Source: Mustelus asterias
Taxonomy: Eukaryota
Direction: 5' to 3'
DNA: 64,000 nucleotides
Assembly: GCF_964213995.1 (NCBI RefSeq)
Contig: NC_135815.1
Coordinates: 33,046,001-33,110,000, forward strand
Part shown: positions 9,981-63,996 of the stretch, piece after piece
Numbering within the stretch: the stretch's first letter is position 1
Layout: each line of letters begins with the position of its first letter
The notes under the pieces: model-generated
Seen by the model: only the letters and a program-made list of their open reading frames with translations
Told to the model about the DNA's origin: nothing
Databases searched by the model: none
Made by a program: the position numbers and the translations under genes

Positions 9981-10544
9981 GTCAATGTCATTTGTGCCTT
10001 TGATAAGGGTTGATTCATTGTGTCAGAAGCAGAAACTTGAGTGTCAATTTATACAACTTAGGAAATTTATAAAATTTGCTTCCCACTTGGTCAAATGTTA
10101 GTCCATGTCTCATTTATAAATGACAGTAATTTAATCATACAGTTTTGCATAATTTTTGAAAATGCTAGGTGCAAAATAATAAAATTCTACCCTAATTCAA
10201 CATTTGATAACTGATTTTGAAAAAAAACATACAACACTGGAATTGCACACAAATTTGAGCATTAATTCTAAAAATGGACCTATTCAACATAAAGATATAT
10301 TCTGTTCTCCAGTTCTGTTTGTCATTTGAGCTCTGAACATGGGCTGGAATTCATTCCAATCTAAGATCACAATTTTACTGGAATGATGACGATCTTCCTC
10401 TAACACAAGAATATATGTAAATTACAGAACGACTGTTGTTTCATGCTCCAGACTTTGCATAACCTCTGTATATCAAGCAAACTTTTAACAATTAAATATA
10501 TACCTCTGACACTTCTCTTCCCTTCCTTGACCACTCTGTCTCCA

Positions 10545-10756
10545 GAGGGTGGTGAACCTGTGGAACTCATTGCCACAGAGGGCTGTGGAGGCCAGGTCAT
10601 TGAGTGTCTTTAAGGCAGAGATAGATAGGTTCTTGATCAATAAGGTGATCAAGGGTTGTGGGGAGGAGAACAGGGATGAGAATCATATCAGCCATGAGTG
10701 AATGACAGAGCAGACTCACTGGGCCGAATGGCCTAATTCTGCACCTATATCTTATG
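10545..10756 (+). mobile_element. 5'-truncated CR1 3' end with 7-bp TSD
   Basis: GAGGGTGGTGAACCTGTGGAACTCATTGCC..GGGCCGAATGGCCTAATTCTGCACC flanked by GTCTCCA at 10538-10544 and 10757-10763. Confidence 0.85.
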
Positions 10757-11230
10757 GTCTCCATTTTTGGTGATAAACTGTCCACGAGTATCCATTACAA
10801 GCCCACCGACTCCCACAACTACCTTGACTACAGCTCTTCACACCTCTGATCCTGTAAGAACTCCATCCCATTCTCTCAATTCCTTCGTCTCTGTCACATC
10901 TGTTCTGATGATGCCACTTTCCAAAATAGTGCTGCCGATATGTCTTCCTTCTTCCTCAATCGTGCTTTTCCACCCACTATGGTTGACAGGTCAACCACGT
11001 CCAACCTATCTTCCGGGCACCTGCTCTTACCCGCTCCCTCCCTTCCAGAGCCAGGATAGGGTCCCCCTTGTCCTCACTTTTCATCCCACCAGTCTCCACG
11101 TACAAAGGATCATCCTCCGCTATTTCCGCCAACTCCAGCATGATGCCACTACTCAACACATCTCCCCCCCCCCCGTCAGCATTCTGCAGGGACCGTTCTC
11201 TCCGGGACACCGTGGTCCACTCCTCCATCA

Positions 11231-11533
11231 TAAAATCCCTACAGTGCAGGAGGCGGCCATTCGGCCCATCAAGTCTGCACCAACCACAATCCCACCCAGA
11301 CCCTATTCCTGTACCCCACATATTTACCCTGCTAATCCCCTGACACTAGGGCCAATTTAGCACAGCAAATCAACCTAACCCGCACATCTTTGGACCGTGG
11401 GAGGAAACCAGAGCACCCAGAGGAAACCCTCACAGACACAGGGAGAACGTGCAAACTCCACACAGTCACCCAAGCCCATAATTGAACCCGGGTCCCTGGC
11501 GCTGTGAAGCAGCAGTGCTAACCACCGTGCTGC
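11231..11533 (-). mobile_element. HE1-type V-SINE with 6-bp TSD
   Basis: Full SINE on minus strand flanked by CCATCA at 11225-11230 and 11534-11539. Confidence 0.9.
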
Positions 11534-12438
11534 CCATCACCCAACACCTCACCTCCTGCCACAGCGCCTTCCCATGCAATCATAGAAAGTGCAACACCTG
11601 CCCCTTTACCTCCTCCCTGCACCGCCCCAGATCCTAAACACCCCTTTCAGGTGAAGCAGCACTTCACATGCACCTCCTTCAATCTGGTCTATTGCATTTG
11701 CTGCTCCCAATGTGATATAATCTACATCGGAGACCAAATGCAGACTGAGTGACCACTTTGCTGAACACCTTTGGTACGTCCACAAGCAGGACCTAGGCCT
11801 TCCTGTCGCTTGCCACTTCAATACACCACCCTCTCTCCTATCCATATGTCCGTCCTTGGCCTTTTGCAATGTTCGAGCGAACCCCAACGCAAACTGGAGG
11901 AATAGCACCTCATCTTCCGATTGAGCACTTTACAGCCTTCTGGACTGAACATTGAGTTCAACAACTTCAGAGCATGAATTCTTTCCTCCACCTTCACCCC
12001 ATTTCCATTTATTTTATTTCATTTTGTTTCATCTCATTCATCCATTTTATCATCCTTCTTTCTCACTTCAATTTTTCCACTTCTCCATTTCGGCTCTCCT
12101 TCTTGCCCCCTTCCCCAGCCTCAGGGAAACTGCCATAATCCTCAGGCAGTCCCTGAACCATCTGTAACTGTTCTGCCATTCACACATTCTGATCACTTAA
12201 TGGACACTTTTAGCATCTTCTCAGACTTTTTATCCTTATTTACATTCCCTTTGTCCCATTCCATCACCCACACCATTCCACCCTCATAGTATAAACCTCT
12301 GCTAATTCTCTTTGCTCTGAGGAAGGGTCATCTAGACTTGAAGTGTTGGCTCTATTCTCTCCCCAGATGCTGTCAGACCTGTTGAGATTTTCCAGCATTT
12401 TGTTTTTGTTTCAGATTCCAGCATCTGCTTTTATCTAA

Positions 12439-18334: not shown

Positions 18335-20785
18335 AGAACATAGAACATTACAGCGCAGAACAGGCCCTTCGGCCCACGATGTTGCACCGACCAGTTAAAA
18401 AAAAAAACTGTGACCCTCCAACCTAAACCAATTTCTTTTCGTCCATGAACCTATCTACGGATCTCTTAAACGCCCCCAAACTAGGCGCATTTACAACTGA
18501 TGCTGGCAGGGCATTCCAATCCCTCACCACCCTCTGGGTAAAGAACCTACCCCTGACATCGGTTCTATAACTACCCCCCCCTCAATTTAAAGCCATGCCC
18601 CCTCGTGCTGGATTTCTCCATCAGAGGAAAAAGGCTATCACTATCCACCCTATCTAAACCTCTAATCATCTTATATGTTTCAATAAGATCCCCTCTTAGC
18701 CGCCGCCTTTCCAGCGAAAACAATCCCAAATCCCTCAGCCTCTCCTCATAGGATCTCCCCTCCATACCAGGCAACATCCTGGTAAACCTCCTCTGCACCC
18801 TCTCCAAAGCCTCCACATCCTTCCTGTAATGTGGGGACCAGAACTGCACACAGTACTCCAAGTGCGGCCGCACCAGAGTTGTGTACAGTTGCAACATAAC
18901 GCTACGACTCCTAAATTCAATCCCCCTACCAATAAACGCCAAGACACCATATGCCTTCTTAACAACCTTATCTACTTGATTCCCAACTTTCAGGGATCTA
19001 TGCACACATACACCTAGATCCCTCTGCTCCTCCACACTATTCAAAGTCCTCCCGTTAGCCCTATACTCAACACATCTGTTATTCCTACCAAAGTGAATTA
19101 CCTCACACTTCTCCGCATTAAACTCCATCCGCCACCTCTCGGCCCAACTTTGCAACCTGTCTAAGTCTTCCTGCAAACTACGACACCCTTCCTCACTGTC
19201 TACCACACCACCGACTTTGGTGTCATCAGCAAATTTGCTAATCCACCCAACTATACCCTCATCCAGATCATTAATAAATATTACAAACAGCAGTGGCCCC
19301 AAAACAGATCCCTGAGGTACACCACTTGTAACCGCACTCCATGATGAATATTTACTATCAACCACCACCCTCTGTTTCCTATCCGCTAGCCAATTCCTGA
19401 TCCAATTTCCTAGATCACCCCCAATCCCATACATCTGCATTTTCTGCAGAAGCCTACCATGGTGAACCTTATCAAACGCCTTACTAAAATCCATATATAC
19501 CACGTCCACTGCCTTGCCCCCATCCACCTCCTTGGTCACTTTCTCAAAAAACTCAATAAGGTTAGTAAGGCACGACCTACCTGCCACAAAACCATGCTGA
19601 CTATCACCTATCAATTCATTACTCTCCAAATAACTATAAATCCTATCCCTTATAATTTTTTCCAACATCTTGCCGACAACAGAAGTGAGACTCACCGGTC
19701 TATAATTCCCGGGGAAGTCTCTGTTCCCCTTCTTAAACAATGGGACAACATTCGCTAACCTCCAATCTTCTGGTACTATACCAGAGGCCAACGACGACCT
19801 GAAGATCAGAGCCAGAGGCTCTGCAATCACTTCTCTTGCCTCCCAGAGAATCCTTGGATAAATCCCATCCGGACCAGGGGATTTATCTATTTTCAGACCC
19901 TCCAGAATATCCTGCACATCCTCCTTATCAACTGTAATACTGTCTATTCTACTCCCCTGCAACCCAGTGTCCTCCTCAGCTATATTCATGTCCCCTTGCG
20001 TGAACACCGAAGAGAAATATTGGTTCAATGCTTCACCAATCTCCTCCGGTTCCACACATAACTTCCCTCTGCCATCTATAACTGGCCCTAAACTTGCCCT
20101 AACCAACCTTCTGTTCTTGACATACCTATAGAACGCCTTAGGATTCTCTTTAACCCTATCCGCCAAAGTCTTCTCATGTCCCCTTTTAGCCCTTCTAAGC
20201 TCGCTCTTCAACTCCCTCTTAGCCAATCTAAAGCTTTCTAGTGCACTACCCGAGTGCTCACGTCTCATCCGAACATAAGCCTCCTTTTTCTTTTTAACCA
20301 ACAAAGAAACTTTTTTGGTGCACCACGGTTCCCTAGCCCTACCAATTCCTCCTTGCCTGACAGGGACATACCTATCACAGACTCGCAGTAGCTGCTCCTT
20401 GAAAAAACTCCACGTGTCGGACGTTCCCAGTCCCTGTAATCTCCTAGTCCAACCTATGTTTCCTAATTCTCTCCTAATAGCCTCATAATTACCCTTCCCC
20501 CAGCTAAAACCACTGGCCCGAGGTTCATGCCTATCCCTTTCCATCACTAAGGTGAACGTAACCGAATTGTGGTCACTATCACCAAAATGCACACCAACTT
20601 CCAAGTCTAGCACCTGGTCTGGCTCATTTCCCAGCACCAGATCCAATATAGCCTCACCTCTAGTTGGCCTGTCTACATACTGAGTCAAAAAACCTTCCTG
20701 CACGCTTTGAACAAAAACTGACCCCTCTAACGAGCTAGAGCTATAACAATTCCAGTCAATATTAGTCAAGTTAAAATCCCCCATA
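18335..20785 (-). mobile_element. Young 5'-truncated CR1 LINE: ORF2 endonuclease end + reverse transcriptase
   Basis: 747-aa open frame with VMGDFN, ILDLVL, GDSDHN, KSPGPDG, NYRPVSLTS, YMDFSKAFD, GVPQGSVLGP, KFADDTK; (TTCTATG)n tail; ACAAT duplicated at 18330-18334 and 20786-20790. Confidence 0.97.
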
Positions 20786-20906
20786 ACAATGTGGGTGAAG
20801 GAAACATTAAACACAGGTTAGGATACAAATGATAGGATTCGCATTCTAATCAGTATTCTGCAACTTGATTTTGTCTGTTTGCACTGTTTGAGAGCACATT
20901 TCCACT

Positions 20907-20943
20907 CCATCTGACGAAGGAGCAGTGCTCTGAAAGCTTATGG
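20907..20943 (+). ncRNA. Minimal type-I hammerhead ribozyme motif in Penelope pseudo-LTR
   Basis: CCAT-CTGACGA-A-GGAGC-AGT-GCTCT-GAAA-GC-TT-ATGG: stem I CCAT/ATGG, intact core, stem II, palindromic AGCT in place of stem III. Confidence 0.7.
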
Positions 20944-22042
20944 TATTTGCTACCAAATAAACCTGTTGGACTTTAACCTGGTGTTGTGAGACTTCTTACC
21001 ATGTTCACCCCAGTCCAACACCGGCATCTCCACATCATTGAAAATCAAACCCAGTGACTAGCAGTTAGATTATCTTGAGAAAATGGATAATCACATAGCA
21101 CTTGGTCACTGTTTATCTTGGTGAGGGTTTTCAAGTATACAGTACTAACATGGGTTTCATTAGAAGCATGCAGTACTTCATCTTGATAACCTGATAATTA
21201 TTTGGAATACTTCATATCAAGTAGCCTTCTTCCAGATTATTTCATCCTTTTTCCTGAGTTCATTCTGATCTGTCAAGTTTTGCAATATGAAATGCAAGTC
21301 TTGTGATAACTATTTCTTTAGGTGTACATTCACAGATTTGTTCTTGATGTTCATGGAAGATTTCATAAACTAAGTAATGTTTAACTGCCTTCATGTGTCA
21401 AAAGGATAGTAACTATGATACTGTTCTCAGATTTTCTCCCCTTCAGGTATAAACCATCAGCATTTTACTTGCTAGATTCATAAATGATATCACAATAATA
21501 AACTGACTACACCCCTCTTTGCAGTGTAGAACAGCTACGACTCGAATCCCTCTTTTTGGCTCCAGTATGTGTGTGGCCTACAGTTAGTGGCTTTCTGCCC
21601 TACAGATCTTGGTAAAATCTACATAGACCAGTTCTGATAACTGATGCTGTCTTTCCTATCTCTTTTCGTAGATGTCAATGACTAATATGCGTATCCTACT
21701 AGTCTTTCTGCTACCCCTTTAAAAAAACATATATTAGACATCTAACAGCAGAATGACCATTTTGGTAGAAACATTGATAGTTATAACTACAGAAACACTG
21801 CCCTTACACAAAGTAGTTTCATTCCAAAGTACACCTTTAAAGGTAACAAATTCAAAATGAACTTTCACCTCAATTAGTAGTTTAAAAAAAAGACATCTCT
21901 TATTTCCACAAGATGCGTCCAAGATGACACTGACTTTATTGCAACATAATAGACATCTATGGATCTGAACCAAGCCTCAGAAGAAAGGTCATTTGAAAGA
22001 AAACATAAGTCTAGAAATCTAACAGCTGAAGAACAATTTGAA

Positions 22043-23009: not shown

Positions 23010-24138
23010 TTCATCTATATGCAGATCCACAAGAGATGAGTGAGATCCTAAATGAATATTTCTCATCAGTATTTACTGTTGAGAAAGGCATGGATGTTGG
23101 GGAACTTGGGGAAATAAATAGTGATGTCTTGAGGAGTGTACATATTACAGAGAAAGAGGTGCTGGAAGTTTTAAAGTGTATCAAAGTAGATAAATCTCCG
23201 GGACCTGGTGAAGTGTATCCCAGGATGCTGTGGGAGGCGAGGGAGGAAATTGTGGCTCCCCTAACAGAGATATTTGAATCATCGAAAGCTACAGGTGAGG
23301 TGCCTAAAGATCGGAAGGTGGCAAATGTTGTGCCTTTGTTTAAGAAGGGCTGCAGGGAAAAGCCTGGGAACTATAGGCCGGTGAGCCTGACATCTGTAGT
23401 GGGTACGTTGTTAGAGGCTATTCTGAGAGACCGGATCTACAGGCATTGAGAGAGGCACGGACTGATTTGGGACAGTCAGCATAGCTTTGTGAGTGGAAAA
23501 TCATGTCTCACGAATTTGAGTTTTTTGAAGGGGTAACCAAGAAGGTAGATCAGGGCAGTGCAGTCGACATTGTCTACATGGACATGAACCCAAGATCCCG
23601 GTTGAAGTCATCCTCATGAGTGCGGAACTTGGCTATCATGTCACGCTACTTGTAACCCCCATCATACTGCCTGGGTTTGCAAAATCCTACAAACTGTCCT
23701 GGCTTGAGACAATTCACACCTCTTTAACCAGTGATTATCCCTCTCTCCATGCACACTGTTTGTACCTGTAAAGACTCGCATTCCAACCATTCTTCACATT
23801 CCAATCTGTAATTATCTTGCAATTGTGTCTTTGCCGATATATGCCATGTTTGTGAACTAACCTGCACTGATCTGATGAAGGAGCAGCCCTCCAAAAGCTC
23901 GTGATTCCAAATAAACCTGTTGAACTTTAACCTGGTGTTGTGAAACTTCTTACTGTTTTCACTAGAAAGATGGAGGCTGAGGGGAGATGTGATAGAGGTC
24001 TACAAAATTATGAGAGGCATAGTCAGGATGGATAGTCTGAGGCTTTTTCCAAGGGTGGAAGTGTCAATTACAAGGGGGCACAGGTTCAAGGAGGGCCGAA
24101 GGGCCTGTTCCTGTGCTGTACTTTTCTTTGTTCTTTGA
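23010..24138 (+). mobile_element. CR1 fragment, internally deleted and interrupted by a Penelope-like element
   Basis: EILNEYFSSVFT..KVDKSPGPG..NYRPVSLTSVVG up to VYMD (~23583); resumes at LFSLER (~23953) through the GGGCCGAAGGGCCTGTTCCTGTGCTGTA tail. Confidence 0.85.
23581..23956 (+). mobile_element. Penelope-like 3' end with inverted 5' piece and a mutated hammerhead
   Basis: Minus 23581-23638 encodes IAKFRTHEDDFNRDLGFM; plus strand continues MSRYL*; pseudo-LTR has CTGATGAAGGAGCAGCCCTCCAAAAGCTC (GAAA changed to AAAA) and the AATAAACCTGTTGAACTTTAACCTGGTGTTG tail. Confidence 0.8.
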
Positions 24139-26092: not shown

Positions 26093-26744
26093 ATTAAAAT
26101 AATTGCTTTACTGTATTGTAAATAAAGCACTGAAATGAATACACCCATCACCTGTTATAAATGTGCTTGGTGCTATGACTGATGGGCACCACAGGGCAGG
26201 GAATGTATTTTGGACACTCATGATCTTATAATTTAATTTGTATTTGTTGCTCCAGTGGCCATGTCTATTATTTTTACATAGGATTGGAAACGTTACATGG
26301 CACAGAAACAGGCTACACTCGCTCCTCTTATCTTTTTCCATCGAAATCTACCATTGTAACCATCAATTCCCTACCCATCGCTGCTTGTCCAGTTTTCCCT
26401 TAAATGCAACTATGCTATTCACTTCAACCACTTCCTGTGATAGAAAGTTCCACATTCTTCTCTTTGGAATAAGAAGTTATTCTGAATTCCCTATCGCTAA
26501 TTGGTTATTGTACTAATGGTGCCCAAGAACACTTGTTACAATTATGTTCCCTTTTGGCACTGGGGCAACTTATCAATATCCCTACCGCTCAAATCAAGAG
26601 GTTTATAAAACAGTACTTTATTACAAATTCACTACCAACCCAGACTCCCACAGCAACATTAATTACACTTCATCACACTCCTCGAAGAACTCCATTCCAT
26701 TCTCCCAGTTTCTCTGTCATACCTGTTCAGATGATACAACCTTC

Positions 26745-28370
26745 CAAATTAGTACTTCCTATACATTTTCCTTTTTCCTCAACCATGGATCCCCTGCCAA
26801 AGTCATTGATAGGATCCTTCACCATGTCTAATCCATTTCATGCACTTCTGCTCTTATTGTCCTCTCCCAGAAACATGGTAGGGTTCTGATTGTTCTCTCC
26901 TTCCACCCCATCAAATTCTGTTGTCAAGGAATCATTGCCAACATTTCTACCACCCGCATTGCAAAGCCATCAGACACATCTTCCCCCCTCCCTTTTCAGC
27001 TTTCCAAAGGGACCATTTCCTCCACAACAATCTGGTTCACTCCTCAGTCACCCTCTCACTTTGCTACCTTTCCAGGCGATGCAACACCTGTCTTTTTGCC
27101 TCCCCCCTTCTCACCATCCACGGCCTCAAACACTCTGTCCAAATGAAACAGCAATTTACTTGTAGTACTTTCAATTTAGTACACTGTTTTGATTGTTCAT
27201 GTACATCGGGGAGACCAAATGCAGGCTGCATGACCGCTTTGCAGAATACCTCCGTTTAGTCTGCAAACATAACCCTGAGTTTCCCATCACTTGTCATTTC
27301 AATTTACCACCTTGCTTCTGATCTTCCTGTCCTTTCGTCTCATGCATCAACACAAGCTTGAGGAACAGCACCTCATCTTGTGACTCAGCACTCCACAGCC
27401 TTCTAGAGTTGTTAAGTTCAGCAATCTTAGATCATAACATCTGCCTCCATTTTGTTTCAAGTATTTTTTTCTCTTGTTTCCTACTTTATTCCTTCACTTT
27501 GCATTCAGACATCAGATTACGTAACCACTCACACCTCTTCTGGGTACACCTTTAATTATAGCTCTTGGGGCTGTAGGGATCAAGGGATGTGGGAGGAAGG
27601 AGGGGAAATCAGGATATTGAATTTGATGATCAGCCATGATCATAATGAATGGCAGAGCACGCTGGAAGGGCCGAATAGCCTACTCCTGCTTCTAGTTTCT
27701 AAGTTTCCCTTGGTGTTTTTCTTTACTTTCCCATTCCATTCCCTTTGGTACTATGACTTTTTAATCACTTGATCTCTCCTGTGACCCTATAACAGACCTT
27801 CCTATTGTTCTTCCTCAACCTTTTCACCAGCTTAACCCCTATCACATTTCTATTTGGGGCAAAACAGTGGTTAGCAGTGCTGTCTCACAGCGTCAGGGAC
27901 CCGGGTTCGATTCCCGGCTTGGGTCACTGTGTATGCAGAGTCTGCACGTTCTCCCCATATCTACATAGGTTCTCTCAGAGTGCTCTGGTTTCCTTCCACA
28001 GCCCGAAAGACGTGCTGGTTAGGTGCATTGGCTATGCTAAATTCTCCCAGTGTACCCGAACGGGCGCCGGAGTGTGGCAACCAGGGATTCGCACAGTAAC
28101 TTCACTGCAGTGTTAATGTAAGCCCTCTTGTGACACTAATAAATAAACCTTTCTTCCCTCAGTTCCGATGTCCTCAGTTCTCAACTCGTCATCCTGCAGC
28201 GTTGGCTCTATTCTCTCCCCACAGATGCTGTGAGACCTGCTGAGTTTTTCCAGCATTTTCTGTTTTGGTTACAGATTCCAGCATCCGCGGTATTTTGCCT
28301 TTAACCTAAAATATTGACTGTTTCTCTCTCTACAGACACAGCCTGCTGAGTGTTTCCACCATTTTCTATC
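26745..28370 (+). mobile_element. Second, older Neptune-type Penelope-like relic with tandem pseudo-LTR ends; interrupted by CR1 and SINE
   Basis: KHSVQMKQQFTCSTFNLVHC..TACATCGGGGAGACCAAATGCAGGCTG GIY-YIG remnant matching 11.6-11.8 kb; CAGATGCTGTGAGACCTGCTGAGTTTTTCCAGCATTTTC at ~28222, repeated at ~28330. Confidence 0.7.
27857..28149 (+). mobile_element. V-SINE variant with alternative tail
   Basis: HE1-like head and V-domain, but tail TGTACCCGAACGGGCGCCGGAGTGTGGC..CACAGTAACTTCACTGCAGTGTTAATGTAAGCC..TGTGACACTAATAAATAAAC. Confidence 0.85.
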
Positions 28371-28414: not shown

Positions 28415-28584
28415 GTCCCTATTGGTCAGATTCCAGCCTATCATCTGCAGAGCCACACCCCCTCGCCCTCTGAACCAAGATATCGCCCAATCAGGATGCA
28501 CGATATAAGGGGGCACCTACTCGAGCCCGGACCAATAGAGTGGCCGCTTGTTGAGTGTTCCGTTGGAAACGGTTCAAGATGGCG
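28415..28584 (+). promoter_or_regulatory. TBCC promoter: three CCAAT boxes and a YY1 motif over the start codon
   Basis: ATTGG at 28421, CCAAT at ~28487 and ~28532, CAAGATGGCG at 28575-28584. Confidence 0.65.
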
Positions 28585-29625
28585 CTGGTTGGGGAGAGCG
28601 AGAAGAGGGAGAATCTAACGGAAGAAATCCCCGAATATGACCGGCGGAAAGAGAAGATGGTGGAGATCCTGCAGCGCCGGGACCTGGAGAGGCAGCAGGG
28701 GGTGGAGAGGAGGAAAATGGCCAAAGATGTGACCAGCGTAAAGGAGGAAAAGGCCAACTTCTTCACCGCCGCCTTTTCCGAGGAGAAGGCGGAGATCGAG
28801 GCGCTGCTGGAGAGCTGCGGTGGCAGCGACAGGACCGCGGTGAACGCCCGCTTCGAGGAGATCTCGCTGAAGATGCAGCAGCTGCAGAAGTTCGTGAACG
28901 ACAGCATGATGTTCCTGTCGGCCTACGAGCTGCGCCAGGCCCAGGACGCCGTGCAGAGGCTGCAGGGGGCGGTGGTGGAGAAGAGGGAGGAGTGTCTGCC
29001 CAAGAAGAAATTCGCTTTCAAATCCCGCAAAAAGGAAGGCGCCGGCCCGAAAGAAGCCAAACCCGCCGATTCACCGTCGGACAAGACATCCAGCGATCCT
29101 ATCGTAATCGAGGAAAACCTCTGCGGCTTTTCGGACGTTGACTCTCAGGTGTTGGTCCGGCGGGCGGACGAGATCACCGGGAAAGACGTGCTGTTGACCA
29201 GGTTGTCCAACTGTGTGGTGAAGCTGCTGGGTTCACCCAACACACTCCATGTCAAGGATGTCACCAACTCCAAGGTGTTGTGCGGACCTGTCTCTACCTC
29301 CGTGTTCATCGATCAGTCCATCGGCTGTACTTTTGCCTTCGCTTGTCAGCAACTGCGAACTCATAATACTAAGGATGCAAATGTGTATTTGCATGTGACC
29401 AGCAGAGCCATCGTCGAAGATTGTACTGGAGTTTCCTTTGCTCCGTTTAACTGGAAGTACGAAGGCATTGAGAAGGATTTTGAGCTAGCAGGTTTAGACA
29501 AAACGAAAAACAATTGGAACATTATTGACGATTTCAATTGGCTCGCGTCTGATCATTCCCCTAACTGGAGTATTTTGGCTGAAGAATCTCGAATAACTGA
29601 CTGGGACGAAATCTTAGCGCCATAA
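28579..29625 (+). CDS. TBCC: Tubulin-specific chaperone C (tubulin folding cofactor C), intronless, 348 aa
   Basis: N-terminal helical domain (LQKFVNDSMMFLSAYELRQAQ, LPKKKFAFKSR) and C-CAP/cofactor C domain (CGPVSTSVFID, ACQQLRTH, LHVTSRAIVEDC, FAPFNW, DDFNWLA..SPNW); first ATG in AAGATGG context; AATAAA at 29701. Confidence 0.97.
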   Translation: MALVGESEKRENLTEEIPEYDRRKEKMVEILQRRDLERQQGVERRKMAKDVTSVKEEKANFFTAAFSEEKAEIEALLESCGGSDRTAVNARFEEISLKMQQLQKFVNDSMMFLSAYELRQAQDAVQRLQGAVVEKREECLPKKKFAFKSRKKEGAGPKEAKPADSPSDKTSSDPIVIEENLCGFSDVDSQVLVRRADEITGKDVLLTRLSNCVVKLLGSPNTLHVKDVTNSKVLCGPVSTSVFIDQSIGCTFAFACQQLRTHNTKDANVYLHVTSRAIVEDCTGVSFAPFNWKYEGIEKDFELAGLDKTKNNWNIIDDFNWLASDHSPNWSILAEESRITDWDEILAP

Positions 29626-36639: not shown

Positions 36640-36840
36640 TTTGAGGACTTTCTTCTTAATCTGCCTCCTTACTCATGGAACTTGTTTTGCAAGATCTGAA
36701 TCTTACTTATTTTAAAATCATTGGCGCTGACATAAACTGCAACTTTTGCCAAATGTCTGTCTTTCTCCAAGAATTTCTGCACCAGTTCCATTGTGTTTCT
36801 TATGTTGGCACCAGGAAGACAACTCACCATTTGAGGTTCA
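36640..36840 (-). mobile_element. CR1 ORF1 (SGNH esterase-like) fragment
   Basis: MVSCLPGANIRNTMELVQKFL..VAVYVSANDF..ILQNKFHE resembles the CLPGA and VHVGTND motifs of CR1 ORF1. Confidence 0.6.
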
Positions 36841-37013
36841 CCAGCTTGGATATGATAGTAAAAGGCTGCCAGCTGAAATATGTGCATACCTTTGCTAGGT
36901 GAGGTAAAGTTATATCTGACCTTCACTTCCAGTGATATGGTTCGACAATGCACATATCACTGGAACTGGTGCAGAAATTTTTGGAGAAAGACAGACAATT
37001 GGCAAAAGTTGCA

Positions 37014-39367: not shown

Positions 39368-39551
39368 GTAAGTAAGAAAGGGGTTGTGGTGGGAGGGTGG
39401 ATCAGATGAAGTGTGCAAGGTAAGGCATGTCTTAACCTTAGCCTTAAGTCGTGTTTCTTTTGCCTTTTTATTGCTAAGGACCTTATAGAATGTCCCTGGT
39501 TTTGCTGTACAGGTTGAGTTTTAAGCCCTAAACACAGTTCCACCATCTCTT

Positions 39552-40075: not shown

Positions 40076-40804
40076 GTAAGAGAGCCAATGATTAAAACAA
40101 GCTCCAAAACCTGACAAAGGATAAAATGTTCTTGCCAAATGCTTCCTGTAAATGTTTTTACTTAACTGCTAAGATGTGTCTATCAAGCAACAAATAGGGG
40201 ATAGTTATTACATATGTTTAATGATAAATGGCAAAATCCTTTTGCCATATAAACTTGTTGGACTTTAACCCTGTTGTTGTGAGACATCTTACTCTGCAAG
40301 CAGAGCTCACTGTGGGCAAAGCTATCATTTTCCATTCGGAGAATTCTTTCTGAAAGGTAGAAACATCAACATGAATGAAGGCAGCATTTTCTGTTTGTAT
40401 TTCAGATTTCCAGCATCTGCAGCATTTTGATTTTGTATTATTGATGTTTTGAATTCTGCCCTGCCACCCTCAAAATAACTAATGAACTCGACTCCTCCGA
40501 ATAATGTATGCATAAGGCCTTTTAGTCAGAAAATATTTCTGAGATTCAGCACAGATATTAAATGAACAAACAACTTAAGAGCAAAAGCAAGCTTTTAGTT
40601 CTGATGAGTTTATGGTGGCAGTCCACAAGTGAGCAGTCTAGAATTTACAAAGTTTGGCATGTTGATTTAAGTGTCTAGAGGGTTTCGATTGTTACCTCTA
40701 TATTACTTATTACATTCATTACATACAATCACAACTTAACCCGGATCAATATGGATTGGATTATGTTATACAAACTGCAATAATAGGTTCTGCATAATAG
40801 GAAT

Positions 40805-40926
40805 ACTATGGAAGCTGGAAATCTGAAATAAAAATAGGTAATGCTGGAAAACTCAGCAGGCCAAGTAACATCTGATGAGAGAGAAAGTTAATCCTTTCCT
40901 CTCTCAACAGATGCTGCCTGACCTGC
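40805..40926. mobile_element. Short inverted Penelope pseudo-LTR remnant
   Basis: GCTGGAAATCTGAAAT..ATGCTGGAAAACTCAGCAGG..CATCTG..GAGAGAG followed by CTCTCTCAACAGATGCTGCCTGACCTGC. Confidence 0.6.
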
Positions 40927-44968: not shown

Positions 44969-45209
44969 TAAAAACAGAAAATATTAAAAATACTTACCAG
45001 GTCTGGAAATATGTATAGAGAGAGAAATAGAGTTAAAGTCTCATGTGGATGACCATTCATCAGAAATCAGTCTGATAAAAGATCATTGACTTGAAATATG
45101 TACTCTGCTTCTCTCTCAACAGATGCTGCCAGACCTGCTGAGAATTTCCAGCATTTTCTGTCTTTGTATCAGATTTCCAGCATCTGTTTAGCTTTTGTGC
45201 TACTTTTCA
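44969..45209. mobile_element. Head-to-head Penelope pseudo-LTR palindrome with decayed hammerhead cores
   Basis: ..CAGGTCTGG..AGAGAGAG..GACCATTCATCAGAA | TCTGATAAAAGATCATTGACTTGAAA..CTCTCTC..CAGATGCTGCCAGACCTG; near-TSD CTGAT(A/G)T at 44962 and 45210. Confidence 0.7.
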
Positions 45210-51585: not shown

Positions 51586-53509
51586 TCCACCACGGAGTAT
51601 TTTTCCCTGCAGAAACCCTTATCCATTCTTTTGTTGCTTTATAGCTTAACTTTCTTCACCGGTGTTCAAAGCTCATTAATACACAAATTCAAACTTGAGA
51701 GTATTATTAGAATTTTGGGCTGTGTGACAATCTCTGCTTCCCTCTCCAAATTCCATCAGTTTTTGTTTCCTAAAGCACTGAATTGAAAATCCTAGTATGG
51801 ATTTATCAATGCCTTTGTGGTCTTGCCCCACGTTACTTCTACAAAGTCTTCCAGCCTGTGCTTTAAAGACATTGGATTTCAAATTCAGTGCATCAGGAAA
51901 CCACTGGAAATCATCTCAACAGCAATGATTGTCAAGCAGACTTAGTATTGGGTTCCTCAGCAGTTTGGATGCTGCTGAGGAAAGTTGAGCCGTGAGGTAA
52001 CAGAAATATTGATAACAGATTCAGCAGGAGGAAATACTCAATCTCAGTGATGGACAGACTTATCCTCAATTGAAAGATTGGGAGAGCCCAGGACATGAAT
52101 GTATTGATTACAATTGATGCAACTCCTCAATAAATCTAGCAATAGACAGAGTGGCCATTGTGAACATTCCTCCTCACTTCTTCAGATACTTCTAACAAGG
52201 AATGCATTCTTCTGACAAGGCTCCAGTGCAAAGCTTGATTTTGTTAGTTATAAACATTTATCTTAATTTCCTGGATGTGAGTGAAAGGTTTTAGTATTGC
52301 TTTTATGCTTTGCTCAGTTTCTGTTTCATGATGTTGAATCCTCAAATGAATATTGACAACAGTGAAGTGTTGTATTTTATTAAAATGTTAATTTGGAGGC
52401 AGTGACATATTTTGAAAGGATTGACAAGCTCAGTGTTAAAACACAATCCTTCTCAGAAAATAATAAACATACACAAATTGTAATACCTCTTGAATGGAAA
52501 ATACTTCTCTAACAGTTACTGCTGCACATGACTACAAATTCATATTTTGTTAAAGACTTGCACTCAAGGTCCATAAGCAGTGGTTGGCTCTAATGAGTTA
52601 GATGAACTTAAGGCTTTCAGGAGAGACTTGTTCCTGGCCCTTCGACTCTCAAACCTTTTCTCTGAACTTAAATGGCAATTCTCATAATGTTTGTGTTCGA
52701 CAAGTGCTTTCCCATGACATAACACAAGAGGGGTCTGTATGTGCAAGGGTATGTATGCATAATTGAATAAGGGAGTATGCATGGAAGGCAAGGTGGCTGC
52801 AAATTTGTATTTGAACACTGGCACCGAGAGTGAAGATAAAGACAGACAAACTAATGTAGCAAGGGATTGTGTTGTGAAAACAATTAAGATGTTGAACACA
52901 TTTTTTTTTAATGCAGTGATTGCTAGTGCATGAACAAACTTGAGCTACATACCAACAATCAAATAAACTTTAGAATAAACAGGTATAAGAAGTTAAATGC
53001 CAAGAGGCCCTACTATGGATATTAATCACGCATCTGGCTTCACTAGCACAGTTGATGACATTTTATGGACTTTCCCAGTTTGGCTCAGAGTGAAGATCAA
53101 CTCCCACAGGTGAGTTCTGACTGCGAACTGAGGGAAAGTTTTCATTCTAAAATGGAGGCAGAACTGTAAGAAAACAATACGAGAAATTCAGAAAATGTAT
53201 CGAGGAAAAGAGAACAGATCAGTTGATTCTTGATTTTCCAAATGTAATTCATTTTAAAACTGGGAGAATGGAAAATAATCCATATAATTTGCAAGCTGTA
53301 AATACTCAGTATTGAAAATTCCTTGTCCTTCTCACTGGCTAGAATAATCTGCACTATCAATTTTTCTAACTAGCCCTTTGTCAACATAAAATAGGTGATT
53401 TTGGGGTGTTTTGTGTTTTTCTTAAAAAGTAGAGCTGTTTTTAACATTTATTCTGGCCCAATTTCATAAAATATTGTGAGCAGTGAATATCTTTAAACAC
53501 CAGAAAGCG

Positions 53510-53707
53510 GGCACAGTAAGAAGTCCAACAGGTTTATTTGGTAGCATGAGCTTTTGGAACACTGCTCCTTCATCAGGTGAGTCTCACCTGATGAAGGAGC
53601 AGCGCTCTGAAAGCTTGTGCTACCAAATAAACCTGTTGGACTTTAACCTGGTGTTGTAAGACTTCTTACTGTGGACACCCCAGTCCAACGCTGGCATCTC
53701 CACACCA
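53510..53707. mobile_element. ~200-bp non-coding Penelope pseudo-LTR palindrome carrying a hammerhead core on each strand
   Basis: AAGTCCAACAGGTTTATTTGGTAGCA..TGCTCCTTCATCAGGTGAG-T-CTCACCTGATGAAGGAGCA..TGCTACCAAATAAACCTGTTGGACTT, centred on 53582. Confidence 0.85.
53585..53619 (+). ncRNA. Minimal type-I hammerhead ribozyme motif
   Basis: CAC-CTGATGA-A-GGAGC-AGC-GCTCT-GAAA-GC-TT-GTG: stem I CAC/GTG, intact core, palindromic AGCT. Confidence 0.7.
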
Positions 53708-55384
53708 GAGAGAGGGGAGGTGGTGGTGTTTGGAGCGGAGGGGGGCAGGGGGAGAGGGGGGCAGGGGGAGGGGGGGGGCGGGCACAACACCCAGGAACGT
53801 TACAAAACCAATCAGTGATCTGTTTGTATGTTTTTACTTCCATCTGGGATCCTGGTAATATCTTGTCAATGATTTATGTAGCCAGGCTTATTCACGGCAA
53901 TATAAAAGCAACAAACTCCAACAGGTTTCCTTTCAGGGAAGGGCGATTAACTCATACTGCAATGCTTTCAGTGGGAGAATAAAATATCAGTGTCATCTAC
54001 CTTTGCAACTTCTGGCCAACAAATTGAGTAAAGGCACAATCGTAACAGTTACTGAAATTACACTTTTTCATGTATACCAAAGCCCGAGATGGAATTGTGC
54101 AGTTTTTGCGAGATTACAATGGGATCTCTCCACAGTTGGTCCTTTCTTCAACGACCAATACTTTCAATCAGTAACTGGTTAATAGATTACTGATATACAT
54201 TCAGTATCCTTCATGTACTTGCTTAACTCAGCAAAAAAAAGTAGCTTTTCTTCCCACTTCTCTGTATCTCTGTTGTGAAAACTGGCCAGAGACTGATGTA
54301 TAGAAGTACTGTGCTAACAAAAAGGGCTGTGGTTATTTCATCTCACAAGGAGAACACCTATGAAAACAAAAGGGTTGAATGGGGAAGTTTTGCAAGTTCT
54401 CAAGCTCTTCCCTCCTTTACGTTGCTTTTTTAATAAAAATGTTACTTCAATTTTCCCTCTTTTTAAGAGAACTCATACCAAGGAACTCCATAGGAGGAAT
54501 AGCCCTGCTATACTCAGTTTGAATGGCTTTTCTTGAGTGAGAGAGAACCTGATTCTGAGTAGGTGATTTCTATCATTGACACTATCACAGCTAAACTTTA
54601 CCCTATCCTCATCAGCATCCACATATACTTTCAGTAGAGGTTCCCAGAGAAAGACCATATGAGAACAGCATGATTAGTTTTTGATTTGTAGCTCGAGAAG
54701 GATAGCCGCAGAATTCTTGTACTGTTGCAGTCGAGAAGCTAAACTCAGGGCAGCCCAGAAATCAAAACGAAAGTTATTTTAACATGAAAGACTCGACCCA
54801 TACCATATATTTTACACATTGGAATGACTGTTTATGATTACATTTGACCAGATAAATCAAACTACATTTGTACTAAATACCAAAATGGATACATTTGTAG
54901 TGCCTCTTGTTGTCGAGTGTGCAAGTCTATGTATCCAATTGAGAAAACTATTTGGAAAGGACAAAGTTAATACCTCCAAATGCTCAGAACATGGATTCTA
55001 TAATGCAATCAATAAATACTAGCGAAAGTTAATCCACAGGATGGAGTAAGTGATGATTTTTTAACAAGTGATACAATCTCTCTAGTTACAAGATGCTCTT
55101 ATCGAAAAAAAACACTGATGCATATTACAAACTAATTTGAAGCAATCTCCAAGTTACTAAAAATATGCAGCTAAGTTATTTTATTAATGCCACAGAATTT
55201 TCGTTTACTTTCTGTACCTTACTTGTAATGTCTTCAAATGTTACTTCAAGGTGGAGTAAATAGGATTAAAGGCTAATAAGATAATCATCTTAATTTCAAG
55301 ATATCATTAAAAACTGCAGCTGCAAGCTATCCAGGAATTACAGAAATACAGTAAGCTTACAATTGACAGATCTGGGCCACTGAA

Positions 55385-55790: not shown

Positions 55791-57567
55791 GAATAAAGCT
55801 TAGAATAAGATTTTTTTTGCACAGGTCGCAGATGAGAAATGTCTCCGCACCATAACAGTCCTTCAAAAGGAAGTTCTCGCTTTCTCTAAAATCAATCAGA
55901 AAATGGTTTCTGATTAAATAGCTACTAAAGGATGAGGGTCTTCAGTTATGTGGAGCAACAAAAAAGTGCTACAGTAAGTTTGGGGAGCTGCTTTTAAGGA
56001 TAAGTGTAAAGTTCTCTCAATGACCTTGGAGATAAATGCACACCCTATTCAAAAAACTAAATTTGGTGCCTTTGCACATGTGTGTGTTCCCTTTGGCTTC
56101 AGTGACCCTAGAAAGGAGCCAGTGTTGCAGCTCTTCACAGTTATCCAGCATGACTATCAGCTGAGGGCACGATCAGTCTCAGGTTTTATGCCTCCCAAAA
56201 CCAACACTGCCCAAATCAATGGAAATGTGCCTCTATACTGGTCACCACCTCAGATAAAAGCAAGGGAATATGAATTGGATGTAGGGGTGTGGGAATTTTG
56301 AAAAATAGCTACAGGTTTTGTTTCAATGAACTGTAGATTATACATTTTTGTTGATACAGTAATACGTGAAACTATTAGAAGTTGAATGAACTCCCCATTC
56401 TTAAGAAAAATACTGAATGGTACCACAATTTAGAGATCACAATCAGAAAATATATTTGAAGCAATAGCTCCTCAAGAGCATACATAGAAAATGTTTTCAA
56501 TGATTTGCTATTTTGCAGGCATTTTCAGGCTTTCCTTCATTTGAATGAATCCAACAGTTTAGCTTAAGGAACAATAGATTTTGCAAGAAAATGACTTGGG
56601 GGATTCAGCTTACGGTTAATGGGTCAATCATTCAAAATGTGCCAAATAATTTCCTGAAAGTAATTTTTAGCTTTGACTGCATCCATTTCCCTCAACGTTG
56701 AGCTTCAGAAACATCCAATCATGTTTCTAGTGTTTCCTTGCCATTAAACAAACGTGCTTAAATTCCTTTCCCCCTCATGGAATCATAAAATCTATTAATT
56801 ATAATTCACTCCCTCACCTCCATTTGATGTCCTTAACTGCAGTAAAACTTCTACTTCCCTCCACTCTGATTGTGCACTATATTGTTGCTCCCTCAAGTCC
56901 AACACATGCACGCTAGAGTATATGCAATGCACAACTGATTTAGCCATCCATCATCAGATCTAGCAGATCACATCAGGTCTCACTATGTCAAAACTGTCCA
57001 TTTCTCCAGCACCTTGGAATGCAAAAATAACTCAACTTCTCCACTGCAAATATTTCCTCTCCTCAGCTTATTCTACTCTCCTTTCCAACAAATGTGAAGA
57101 GCTTATGGATTCCTGAATCACCAAGATTAAAACAATCAATTCAATAGCTGCTGCAGCTTCTCCTCCCTCCCCCACCCCCCGCCCCAGCCCCAAAGCAAAA
57201 GCTCCCCAGATGTTATCCTCTTGCTTCACTATTTCTCTGTCTCAGTCTGTCTAAACTCATCGCGTTCCTGAGACTCCGGTACCTGCTACATTGGTACCAT
57301 TCCCACTTCCTTTTTTGACCTCTGCTAGCTGACATTGTAAATGACTCCTAATCCTTGGGTACTATTCTCACCCCTTAAAGTAGCATCAATACCTACCCCC
57401 TCAAAAACTATACCTTTGATCCTTTTCCTCTCCAAAATACTTTAACACAATTGTTTCTCAAATCTGTAGCCATCCTTTCCACAAGCTGTCCGGTTGGGTT
57501 TGTCTCCATCCCACAGCACTGGAATAATTCTAACTGAAGTAGTTTAGTAATACAGAACCAGAACTTG

Positions 57568-58619
57568 AGTATTGCTGAAAAAAGAAACATGTCAAAGGTT
57601 TTGGTCTTGCACTCATCAGGAAGCTTCACAAGAACCCCAGTATAAGGGGAAAACAGCAATTTATACTGTATAAGAGAATGTTAATTGTTTGGCAGATGGG
57701 TTGATTGGGAGAGGCATTGCCATGGAGAATGCACCAGTTGATGGTGACTGATAGACAACTGCCAAGCATTGTTTGAAATTTAAATATGGCAACTTGACCC
57801 TGATTGGTCAAGGTGCTGACCTGGAGAATAAATCAGCAAATGGCCGTCACTTATTTTGTTTAGCTGCAACAAGGGTAACGTGTACACATATTTGTTCTGC
57901 CTGCAGAGAACAGGGCACTATATATGTAGCTTCCAGTACACGCAAATGTACCACACTGAGCCTGACTGACAACGCGAAATTGGTTGTCAGCACAATTCTT
58001 AACACAATTCAACAAAATATTTCCAACCATAGAATCACATTTAATGTTGGACACTGTTTTGCAAGCATGGGCTGGTTGGGTGCAATCTGTACCTTGCCTG
58101 TTGTGGCAGCAGCTGGGACATGCTGATCGATTGGGACATACAGTCTACATACCTAGCGTCACACTGGCACTCGAATTAATATACCACAATACTCATCTGT
58201 GTGAGGGGTAATATGTCTTTTTGGCTTGACGGCAGCATCCTGTTAGTGGTGAATACCAATCGTGTTGCTACTGCACAGTAGCAGCGCAAAACAGCTAGTT
58301 ACACCTGGTTGTTAAATTGAGAAACTTTGCCCTTCCAGGATAATCCGAGGTAGACTGGGCACTTTCCAGGCCAAAAGTGATGGCTTTAGGCCCGTTCATG
58401 ATTGTGAGATATACAGCACTAAATGATTTGTTCAGGGTAGCCATTCCCTGCAGAATGTTTTGGCAATGCCTCTATCTATCAGACTCCACATGCCAATCAC
58501 TCAGCATTCTTTTCTCATACAGTATAAATTGTTGTTTTCCCTTGTACTGGTATTCTTACAATGTGTCCTAATGAGATTAAGACCAAAAGCTTTGACATGT
58601 TTCTTATTTCAGCAATACT
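57568..58619 (-). mobile_element. Penelope-like element (Poseidon type) GIY-YIG remnant between inverted pseudo-LTRs, inserted in an old L2-like LINE
   Basis: Terminal IRs AGTATTGCTGAAA..AGAAACATGTCAAA..TTGGTCTT..CTCAT and its reverse complement; minus frame FTTNRMLPSSQKDILPLTQMSIVVY*FECQCDARYV..KCDSMVG..DNQFRVVSQA. Confidence 0.8.
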
Positions 58620-60759: not shown

Positions 60760-61940
60760 TGAACAAAAAACGTTCAACACCAAAAGCATTTATTTTTAAT
60801 CTTGAGCGGTTTTTTTACATATAGTACATAGTACCAATTATACATGAATTCAACATATATTAACAGCCCATTTATTACAAGTATTCTCCCAAATACCGAA
60901 AGTATTCCTGTTTTATAAACATTTCTACAATGAACGCAAATACATGCTAAATGGTTTCATGAGAGGAGATTGCACGATACAAGAGAATGTGGTTAATTTA
61001 AGGTATCAACAGGACAAGTAAAAGGAAAAGAAGTGGGTGTGCTCTCCATTTCAGCAATATGTACATTAGTTCAAAACTAAAGATTATGAGTTTATTCGGC
61101 CTTGTCAGGCTTTTCATTTATATCCATAAACTGGGTCAGCCAACAGTGGGAAAACAGAACAGCCTCACTTTCACAACAAACTGTAGTTAACTGAAAAGAA
61201 AATGATCTGGAAGACCCAGCGTAATCTAATGTTATATTCAAGTTGCAGCACCTGTGAATTTTCATGTTTATTCAAGCATTAAAAAAATTCTTCGACACTT
61301 ATGTAAAATAGAAAATAAATCCCCCAAAACGGACCTTCCATTTTAAATGGGTGCAGTACTGTACATGGGGTTGTATCTACTACTTGTACCAATACACAAA
61401 TCTAGTTTATTTACTTCATATACCAGTAACATGAGCTCTGTTCAACATCAAATTCTTTTGTAGCCTGCTAATCTTTACATGGAAATAATATTAAATTGTG
61501 TTTGCTAATCTCAACAAAACATGGTCAAAGCAACACTGGGGTACAAGCAGAGTGAAAAATCTTTTCCAACAAGAGAATATATTGTAAGTATTATTAATTG
61601 TAACACAATAAGGTTCAGGTGTTGATGGAACAGTAATGTTGCTAGAGAATGAAATGGCATAAATATTCTCAAGCTTAACCTAACTTAGTTGAAAAAAAAC
61701 GAATGGTGTGTTAGATTTATATGGTACATCTCCAACATGAGTTTAACATGTTAACAGACAGTTTCATTCCAAGCATTGTAAAATATTCCAATTTAGTCAA
61801 TTAATGCATAAAATATTTGACTGATAAGCAATGCGCGTTTCAAGTTATTACCCATATTGGAGGACAAACAAAAATGGCTACGCTCTAAAATCACCGTAGA
61901 AGCCAAAATGTTGCAGTGCTACTTGCAATAAAGCAAATTA
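60760..61940 (-). other. Candidate 3'UTR end of a minus-strand gene (possibly UBR2 by synteny)
   Basis: AATAAA on minus (TTTATT 60789-60794) followed on minus by GT/T-rich TGTTGAACGTTTTTTGTT; repeat-free AU-rich tract with many TGTA motifs; no coding exon seen. Confidence 0.4.
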
Positions 61941-62504
61941 CTGGAGGATCAGGAGTTGACTCTCATTCTCACCAACAGAGACCATTAAAAAAGTGAACTA
62001 GAGATGTCCTCATGCTCATTTCCAACCATGAGGACTTGAGGCTCAAGACAATGCAGCAAAAGAGTGGTTTTGAGTTATAGGTAAAGACTTTGCTTTTCAA
62101 GACCAGAAGAAGTTAACTGAGAGGGAATATTGAATAATTGGTATTGAAAAGATAACTCTAGAATACTACTTCAAAATAAAGCATGACAATTGGACTTCGG
62201 GCATATGCTCAGACTGATAAGAAGCAAATTTGTTGTCAGGAAGTCCGTAAGGAGCAAATACCAAAATTGAATGGATTACTGGTTAGAGGATGCAAAAATA
62301 TTGAATTCATTTGAGAAACATTTGGACGCTGTGATGTAAGAACAGTAGGATCTTTCTGGAGGCTGAATGGCTTTCTTCATCTGTATCTATCATCTGAGAT
62401 GAACATAATCAGGATGAAAGGGAACTGGAACTAGTATTGTAACTTGAAATTAAGTGACAATAGAAATAAATAAACATTCCCTCATCAGACATGTTGGAAA
62501 GTTA

Positions 62505-62727
62505 ATAAAGGCAGAAAATTTTGGAAAAACTCAGCAGGTCTGGGAGCATCGGTGGAGAGAGAAAACAGTTAATGTTTCATGTCCTTGTAACGCTTCTTCA
62601 GAGCGCAGAAAGAGTCGTCTGGACTCGAAACGATAACTCCACAAATGCTGTCAAATCTGCTGAGTCTTTTCAGCATTTTGTTATTAGTTCAGATTTCCAG
62701 CATCCATAGTAATTTGCTTTGATTATT
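62505..62727. mobile_element. Head-to-head Penelope pseudo-LTR palindrome with 11-bp TSD
   Basis: ..CTCAGCAGGTCTGGGAGCATC..AGTTAATGTTTC..CTTCTTCAGAG | ..AGAGTCGTCTGGACTCGAAACGATAACT..ATGCTG..CTGCTGAG; TTGGAAAGTTA at 62494-62504 and 62728-62738. Confidence 0.85.
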
Positions 62728-63032
62728 TTGGAAAGTTATCTTCCTTAAGGATTAGCTTTTCTAAGTTTTGGCAAATCTATCACTGAAGTTAGTTAAAATT
62801 CAGTAAAATATATATTTTTTTTATTCACTAGATCCAACTGTTAAATTATGCTCAGTGTTACATGTCCAGAATTGTCTTTTTACCTTATTTAATTCTGGAC
62901 AGTTATAAACAGAATTGTTAAAAATCATTCACAATATGTTTTGTGCTGAAAAATGCCATCATGCCATGTAGATCAACAGTTCCCTTTTAAATAAATCAGT
63001 ATTAACACTTGCTCAGTAGGACAGAACTTCAA

Positions 63033-63996
63033 TATTGCCAAAAAAAGACATGCTGCCAAAGCCCTGCACTCATCAGAACAGACAAGAATGCCAAAGTTCA
63101 AAGGGCACAACAAATTATACTATGAGAAAAGGTACTATTTGTTTGGCAAGTTGTCTCTGATTAGTTAAGGCATCACCATAGAGAATGCACCAGGGAACTC
63201 TGTGTCCCATGCATTTGTTTAATTTAAGATAGGTGTAATGTCCAGACATATTATTTTTGCCTCCAGAGCAGAGGTCTCTCTGCACTTGAATATATATAGC
63301 TTAGAGCAGGAGCCATATATCAAACTCAACAGATAATTTTAAATTGGTAGTCAATGTAATTCTGCGCATACTCGGGATTGTTCAGCAAGTGCTGTCCAAT
63401 TGTGTAATCACATCTAACGTTAGACATGATGTTCTGAGTTTTGCAATCATGGGCTAGCACTTTCTACCTCCCACCCAAATCTCAGTGCCGATCTAATGCC
63501 AAGTATGGAAGCCATTAATCCCAACAGCTGGCGAATCATATCAAAAAGCATGTCTCTTTGACTGTTCAGAACATGCAGAGTACTGACCATACTCAACCAG
63601 CCCATTCTTGCAAAATGCAGAACATGTGATTACATGACCTAATGGCACTTGTTGAACAAGCCTGGGTGTGCTCAGAATTACGTTAAAAAACAATTTAATA
63701 TGAACAGTTGGGATCACAATGTGACTCATTTATGCTTAGTAGAAGCTACATATATTCATATGCATGTGTAGGCATTTTACTTTTTTTTGAATTAAAATTA
63801 AGCGCATGGGACAATAATTTCCTGGTGCACTCTCCAAGGCAATGCCTCTATCAATCAGCATCAACTTACCAACCAAACAGCACCCTTTTTTCATGTAGTA
63901 TAAATTGTTACTCCCTTTGAAATTAGGCATTGTTGCAACTAACCTGATGAGTACAAGATGAAAACCTTCAACAGCATGTCTCTTTTCTCAGCAATA
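63033..63996 (-). mobile_element. Second Poseidon-type Penelope-like remnant between inverted pseudo-LTRs
   Basis: TATTGC..AAAAGACATGCTG..CACTCATCAG at left and CTGATGAGTACAAGATGAAAACCTTCAACAGCATGTCTCTTTT..GCAATA at right; minus frame VRCDYTIGQHLLNNPEYAQNYIDYQFKII. Confidence 0.8.

Follow-up and report, generated by a model that had tools for sequence, protein, structure and literature searches.

Background

Minimal hammerhead ribozymes (min-HHRs) have been described in the pseudo-long terminal repeats (pLTRs) of metazoan Penelope-like elements (PLEs) (Cervera and De la Pena 2014, PMC4209133). Here we analyse three families of such motifs, called A, B and C, in a stretch of 64,000 nucleotides from Mustelus asterias (NC_135815.1, positions 33,046,001-33,110,000; hereafter the window) and in the 3.68-Gb genome to which it belongs. 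An initial annotation of the window had interpreted part of the insertions as replicating, ribozyme-bounded mini-elements. We conclude, with a probability of roughly 0.8, that they derive from three endonuclease-bearing (EN+) PLEs as truncated, in many cases inverted copies, and that the protein of an autonomous element built each palindrome during insertion.

The comparisons made here cover parts of the cited papers. The motifs share with the published min-HHRs the CUGANGA/GAAA core, a palindromic helix III of 1-2 bp, a short helix I, the G10.1-C11.1 pair, an extra base after position 9 (here in A and B), the location in the pLTR and the occurrence of thousands of solo copies; min-HHR pairs on opposite strands, 100-700 bp apart, had also been noted there already (PMC4209133). 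They differ in that family A has more than 40,000 exact cores, compared to 4,000-9,000 for coelacanth and Xenopus (the methods of counting differ), and in that helix II of family C has 2 bp and no extra base, whereas the helices described in that paper have 6-8 bp.

Canonical EN+ PLEs (PMC8557442, PMC3846280, PMC8969392) have the same reverse transcriptase (RT) followed by a C-terminal GIY-YIG endonuclease, the same 5' truncation with target site duplications (TSDs), the same inverted 5'-truncated neighbour copy with a one-sided tail of 30-40 bp, and the same TATA/initiator-like motifs in their pLTRs. The CX2-5CxxC linker found in A and B marks the Neptune clade, but is also present in Nematis (PMC8557442). 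Very short stumps predominate in the present families, and the TSDs measure 12-14 bp here, compared to 8-10 bp in a rotifer PLE. The Poseidon protein of Anolis carolinensis (Frangieh et al. 2024, PMC11167929) cuts and extends both target strands in vitro and uses, as here, two internal RT start sites that bracket the tail; these lie 111-118 nt inside the ORF (open reading frame), whereas the long end of family A lies immediately before the ATG. The Anolis hammerhead requires the protein for activity and is dispensable for insertion in vitro. Finally, non-LTR retrozymes (bioRxiv 10.64898/2026.07.22.740005), found in one chondrichthyan, are likewise non-coding, hammerhead-bearing and derived from pLTRs, but are arranged as direct tandems in which every unit has a hammerhead, whereas the units of the window are solo or inverted. 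No account of shark PLE hammerheads, of 5' ends piling up at the hammerhead or of two-ended PLE priming was found in the literature covered, a weak negative as most subscription journals and Repbase/Dfam lie outside that coverage.

Three families of minimal hammerheads

Genome-wide, exact cores occur 40,566 times for family A (20,220 on the plus and 20,346 on the minus strand), 1,344 times for B (670 and 674 by strand) and 16 times for C (10 and 6), with zero matches to the reversed-pattern controls of each family; judged by these counts, A appears to be young, B to be older and C to be old. Of the copies in position-picked DNA, 19/30 of A, 2/13 of B and 2/5 of C have an intact core. The B and C motifs, originally reconstructed from decayed copies, match consensuses of 30 genomic copies each (the window's own copy included), the proposed palindromes AGCT (A), ACGT (B) and AAGCTT (C) were borne out, and the CUGANGA, GAAA and UH core elements are present in the consensuses of all three families. 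The A hammerhead consists of a helix I of 3-4 bp, an extra A, a helix II of 5 bp and the palindrome AGCU; B has a helix I of 4 bp, an extra A, a helix II of 5 bp and the palindrome ACGU; and C has a helix I of 4-5 bp, a helix II of just 2 bp, no extra base and the palindrome AAGCUU. Position H17 conforms to the core (A, U or C) in 141 of 143 A copies.

Stem I of family A is of the type CAT/ATG in 59 and CAC/GTG in 50 of 143 copies, with 11 mixed and 23 other (Fisher p 2e-21), and its core-adjacent pair is U-A or C-G according to subfamily; the fifth pair of helix I in family C is paired in 38/44 copies. Among 31 aligned rows of A, 95.8% of the cells pair and the covariation score was reached by 0/500 shuffles, although few subfamily events underlie the covariation in A and C, and in 27 of the 31 A rows the search pattern itself dictated helix II. 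Changes in helix II within A are one-sided only. Cofolding of monomers yielded no clean dimeric hammerhead fold, a type of fold that the energy model does not cover. One further A subfamily (L141, L148, L211, L257, L331) has a helix II with a G-U pair and a 5-nt loop, and direct partial tandems are common in it.

All 13 motif positions listed for the window were correct: 20911+, 23872+, 53576- and 53588+ for A, 12317+, 45063-/45073+ and 62601-/62604+ for B, and 57619-, 58568+, 63076- and 63944+ for C. The intact A core that had been claimed at four sites is present at 20911 and 53588, which keep GAAA, and is lost at 23872 and 53576, which read AAAA. Both CUGANGA and GAAA are kept in 4 of the 13 copies (20911, 53588, 62601 and 63944), and the stems are preserved as well in just two of these (20911 and 53588).

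It is hardly credible that the motifs are chance look-alikes, or that the palindromes are MITEs (miniature inverted-repeat transposable elements) of a DNA transposon. Most window copies have broken cores, and Rfam contains no matching model. Its search of the window with E-values of up to 5 gave no hammerhead family, a result that is uninformative for minimal motifs, and included a below-threshold match of MIR8562 to the unit at 53.5 kb. These points would suit such an explanation, but tens of thousands of exact cores against none in the controls, the covarying stem I of A, and the asymmetric ends and variable length of the units argue against it, and the direct linkage to RT/GIY-YIG ORFs already refutes it. 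The three motif families are real parts of the pLTRs of three PLE families, and the proposal that three separate PLE lineages each carry a minimal type I hammerhead, with stems and a helix III palindrome of their own, is upheld.

Parent elements

Parents of family A were sought with 150 residues of its RT; 150 of the 12,855 candidates were scored and ten loci were retrieved, eight of them for open frames. Full copies with a pLTR-ORF-pLTR structure have open frames of 865-927 codons, and include head-to-head pairs that carry ORFs. One such copy, at locus L231, has an ORF of 892 residues, with the A tail ending immediately before the ATG. Pfam domains RVT_1 and, C-terminally, GIY-YIG are identified in this 892-residue protein above cut-off, and its closest homologues are shark proteins (best 84-92% identity), while turtle RT/GIY-YIG proteins are 43-46% identical. 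Partial-tandem pLTRs were seen at loci L230 and L231. The RT and GIY-YIG domains of B and C were read from decayed copies and consensuses, in the case of C from the C-terminal part of the RT onward only. The A and B proteins are 35% identical and both have a CX4CX2C linker between RT and endonuclease; C has no such linker and keeps a CCHH-type pattern.

A Penelope-type ORF remnant had been reported in the window for each family, and was indeed found for A, B and C. In B it comprises RT-thumb, linker and GIY-YIG (~10757-12100), and in C GIY-YIG remnants (~57.8-58.46 kb on the minus strand, and 63.15-63.76 kb). These window remnants map onto the three parent elements.

Arrangement, ends and target site duplications

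Five of the eight hammerhead-bearing insertions in the window are head-to-head palindromes with two hammerheads, and two further insertions have short inverted pieces. The statement that insertions are mostly head-to-head holds for the window, but not for a sample of 110 position-picked stretches of 10 kb (1.1 Mb; 185 3' ends representing ~140 insertions), where 19 of the ~140 insertions have two hammerheads (A 15/66, B 3/65, C 1/9). An adjacent inverted arm of any kind accompanies 45 of the ~140 insertions, and 15 of the 185 3' ends reach the ORF, all three counts being lower bounds as arms that are decayed or cut by tile edges were missed. Copy length varies continuously through 5' truncation, from less than 50 bp to full length. 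Direct tandems of hammerhead units were not seen in the window, and a direct neighbour within 3.5 kb was found for 4/42 A, 0/25 B and 0/8 C hammerheads.

The units are not ribozyme-bounded, as had been suggested, since the hammerheads lie in the middle of the palindromes and the outer ends 50-130 nt downstream of them. Each family has two fixed 3' ends, located from the first core base at ~+86/+125 (A), ~+95/+129 (B) and ~+50/+73 (C), with a one-sided tail of ~36-39 bp in A, ~33 bp in B and ~20-25 bp in C. One short and one long end are combined in 121 of 133 units (all loci; cut-offs for short and long ends chosen by us). Public contigs contain loose ends at both A 3' sites. At L231:5799-5835, about 50 contigs of one public run have opposite-strand joints between the short and long A 3' sites, which are possibly tail-to-tail junctions or tail-only inversions.

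Target duplications of at least 8 bp flank 40 of 73 units, all of them A and B, compared to 1.7% of 300 shuffled flank pairs. They measure 12-14 bp, mostly 13-14 letters as scored with one mismatch allowed. This implies that each A/B palindrome is an insertion product.

The two arms of a unit resemble each other more than arms of different units do: the mean distance is 3.3 within units and 5.7 between units (34 pairs, 0/20,000 permutations), also within a stem I class, and the stem I type agrees between the arms in 47 of 50 short A palindromes, as counted by hand. In some units the tailed arm consists of the tail alone, or is the shorter arm (L267, L100, L135, L294). Arms of the same subfamily, the short/long asymmetry and the tail-only arms together fit priming at both target ends on one RNA.

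A second arm formed by fold-back self-priming of the cDNA, or by self-priming on an antisense template, has been modelled for rotifer PLEs (PMC3846280). At many junctions the sequence is a near-perfect palindrome around a natural self-complementary word, and both arms have a common haplotype, as expected from such a process. Fold-back alone leaves unexplained, however, that two different fixed outer sites are used in the 121 units mentioned above, and that the tailed arm can be tail-only or the shorter one; moreover, reverse transcription starts at both sites in vitro in another PLE (PMC11167929). We therefore consider fold-back an unlikely origin of the second arm.

Junctions: one-off products or a replicating unit

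Short A palindromes with exact stems number 2,652 genome-wide. The first 50 of these listed have ~42 junction classes (counted by hand), the largest with three members, and the junctions are mostly located at natural microhomology, in self-complementary words of the pLTR. Among 3,946 within-family junction pairs four matched, namely a segmental duplication, a simple microhomology junction, L319/L320 and L316/L317; the filter used is not fully sensitive, as it missed the pair L008/L009, which was found by eye. A contiguous 200-kb survey for sibling junctions yielded one matching pair, a segmental duplication.

Two sibling pairs of A units were identified, each pair on one chromosome: L008/L009 (L008:1354-1593 and L009:1385-1626), 1.8 kb apart, and L308/L312 (centres near 1520; the same places as L316/L317), 630 kb apart. 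Within each pair the junction is common, the flanks differ and the tail is on opposite arms. Exact matches to the shared junctions occur genome-wide three times for L008/L009 and twice for L308/L312. They could result from gene conversion of the hairpin centre or from rare local re-copying. The left arm of L008 has two A-to-G changes on one strand.

These data bear on the suggestion of a non-autonomous mini-element, similar to a retrozyme or a MITE, in which the palindrome would replicate through transcription, cleavage by its hammerheads and re-insertion of the whole unit. The high number of short A palindromes, the sibling pairs and the absence of coding sequence from most copies would agree with it, and non-autonomous PLE derivatives have been published (bioRxiv 10.64898/2026.07.22.740005; PMC8557442). 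However, the junctions are too diverse for a unit that is copied, the two shared ones being found only in the two and three exact copies given above, and the published retrozymes are direct tandems, unlike the units of the window. In addition, the 53.5-kb unit folds as one hairpin (-121.6 kcal/mol, z -14.4) in which the single sense hammerhead of each strand pairs with its own antisense, so that the hammerhead is predicted to be masked and a dimer in cis not to form. Together with the truncation series and the full-length A masters, this makes a replicating mini-element very improbable. The initial annotation had itself named unique palindrome junctions as a sign of one-off products, and unique they largely are, the two sibling pairs leaving room for rare re-copying. 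Most likely, the palindromes are one-off truncation/inversion products of autonomous elements, i.e. dead stumps made anew at each insertion.

5' ends at the front edge of the hammerhead

Many copies of A and B end just in front of the hammerhead. The 5' end lies 0-9 nt before the core in 16/38 A copies at risk and 18/21 B copies; with anchored extension these numbers are 22/71 for A, 34/46 for B and 4/36 for C. Within A, the five subfamilies have 4/41, 4/25, 9/17, 7/15 and 1/18 of their 5' ends within 9 nt, and the 13 unassigned copies 7/13.

TATA-like boxes were identified in the pLTRs at -34 in B, at -38 and -44 in two A subfamilies, and at -46 in C, which would place transcription starts near -4, -8, -14 and -16, respectively. 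Upstream of the C hammerhead, the pLTR contains a TATA box as well as two CCAAT boxes (57640-57740 on the minus and 58461-58540 on the plus strand). The predicted starts fit B and those two A subfamilies that have the strongest pile-up, but fail for C and for one A subfamily with a TATA-like box. A young A subfamily without a TATA-like box has the second-lowest pile-up (4/41 vs 21/75, p 0.03, the 13 unassigned copies excluded). Stalling at the hammerhead structure was considered as the sole cause of the pile-up, and is disfavoured because A subfamilies with near-identical hammerheads differ in pile-up.

Starts at the predicted cleavage site are not enriched (A 1/72, B 0/50), in a sample too small to exclude a few percent. 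For A, eight copies were scored at the cut, of which seven were removed as belonging to a further A subfamily that is lacking from the references.

Proposed integration mechanism

The scheme that we propose builds on direct observations: the families and their ORFs, two 3' ends per family, duplications in A and B, short plus tailed arms, a common subfamily of both arms, and junctions that vary. The remaining steps are our interpretation. The GIY-YIG endonuclease would make a staggered cut in the target, after which both target ends would prime reverse transcription on one RNA, or on RNAs of one locus, one of them using the short and the other the long internal site. Synthesis of each cDNA would then proceed towards the 5' end and terminate, in many cases at the hammerhead's front edge (perhaps the 5' end of the transcript), and the two cDNA ends would be joined through microhomology or by end joining. 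The hammerhead would cut the precursor RNA, either as a dimer or together with the element's protein, and in the stumps it would be a mostly decayed passenger.

Several observations weigh against this reading. Clade membership was assigned by motif and not by a tree against named references, A and B being putatively Neptune-type and C putatively Penelope/Poseidon-type. An intact ORF of B or C was not among the retrieved copies, all of which are decayed. Family C shows a duplication of at least 8 bp in 0/7 units examined, which are older units, and has no front-edge pile-up; the start predicted from its TATA box would lie at 10-19 nt, and none of 36 C ends is located there. One A subfamily with a TATA-like box has no pile-up either (1/18). 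Gene conversion in the hairpin, or fold-back synthesis, could also account for the likeness of the arms, and the two sibling pairs each have a common junction.

A further-reaching version, namely that the stumps record PLE integration as two-ended priming, run-off at the promoter start of the pLTR (comparable to a 'strong-stop'), head-to-head joining and occasional local re-copying with the tail switched, and that the C hammerhead works with a helix II of 2 bp, is possible, but rather less likely than not.

Insertions and neighbouring features in the window

The first insertion is a 5'-truncated copy of the putatively Neptune-type family B (10504..12428, plus strand), comprising RT-thumb, CX4CX2C linker, GIY-YIG remnant, pLTR and the decayed hammerhead at 12317. 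It ends at the long site, adjoining a (TA)n tract, and is interrupted at ~10546-10750 and by a SINE-like (short interspersed nuclear element) repeat at ~11227-11530. Two family A stumps follow on the plus strand: a stump plus tail at 20786..21038, with the core-intact hammerhead 20911 and a short inverted piece (20786-20820) that lacks a further hammerhead, and a stump at 23581..23956, with hammerhead 23872 (GAAA changed to AAAA) and an inverted 58-bp piece on the minus strand (23580-23645) that encodes the last 22 residues of the endonuclease. A family B 3' end at 28200..28302 (plus), absent from the initial annotation, begins inside the hammerhead. Hammerheads are lacking from an extreme 3' end of A at 40245..40297 (plus) and from two B 3'-end fragments at 40382-40434 (plus) and 40802-40885 (minus).

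The head-to-head units start with a B unit at 44970..45189 on both strands, whose hammerheads 45063- and 45073+ are both broken; a target duplication was looked for at its flanks and none was found. The A unit at 53512..53704 has a short left arm (53576-, broken) and a tailed right arm (53588+, core intact), flanked by a target duplication of ~13-15 bp (53497-53511 and 53702-53716). The putatively Penelope/Poseidon-type C unit at 57559..58619 consists of a 900-bp minus arm with a GIY-YIG remnant and a 160-bp plus arm, joined at 58461, with both hammerheads (57619- and 58568+) broken. A second B unit, at 62504..62721, has a short and a tailed arm and a target duplication of ~11-15 bp (62491-62505 and 62725-62739); its hammerhead 62604+ is broken, and in 62601- the core letters remain but the stems have decayed. 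The last C unit (63016..64000) reaches the window edge and has endonuclease remnants in both arms; GAAA is lost in hammerhead 63076-, and 63944+ keeps the core letters with decayed stems.

An ORF remnant at 26627-27403 (plus), 65% alike to family B, likely represents a fourth Penelope-like lineage. The A stump at 20.8 kb adjoins a LINE (long interspersed nuclear element) open frame of 748 codons with an APE-type endonuclease and RT (18571-20817, minus), which we take to be CR1-like. Genes in the window include an intronless TBCC ORF (28555-29625, plus) and a tetraspanin exon (38736-39371, plus), presumably of peripherin-2 (peripherin-like); the elements at 44-64 kb may lie within or near introns of this tetraspanin gene. 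A decayed 18S rRNA fragment (36783-37161, plus; Rfam 70.3 bits) overlaps a 58-bp inverted repeat at 36736-37015, and a GC-rich hairpin is found at 43919-44027, within a region of inverted SINE-like repeats (42.2-44.6 kb).

Significance

Minimal hammerheads in pLTRs, inverted tailed stumps and non-autonomous derivatives are already published features of PLEs, and the present families have little weight as the discovery of a ribozyme system. Less ordinary are the front-edge pile-up in A and B, the 2-bp helix II of C and the two sibling pairs with a common junction. For annotation, such repeats should be filed as PLE ends, and not as MITEs or microRNA hairpins. Their value is that of a very large natural sample for PLE integration and the role of the hammerhead in it: family A, with its intact-looking ORFs and abundant exact cores, allows counts of start sites, of junctions and of where the arms originate, on which in vitro tests can then build.

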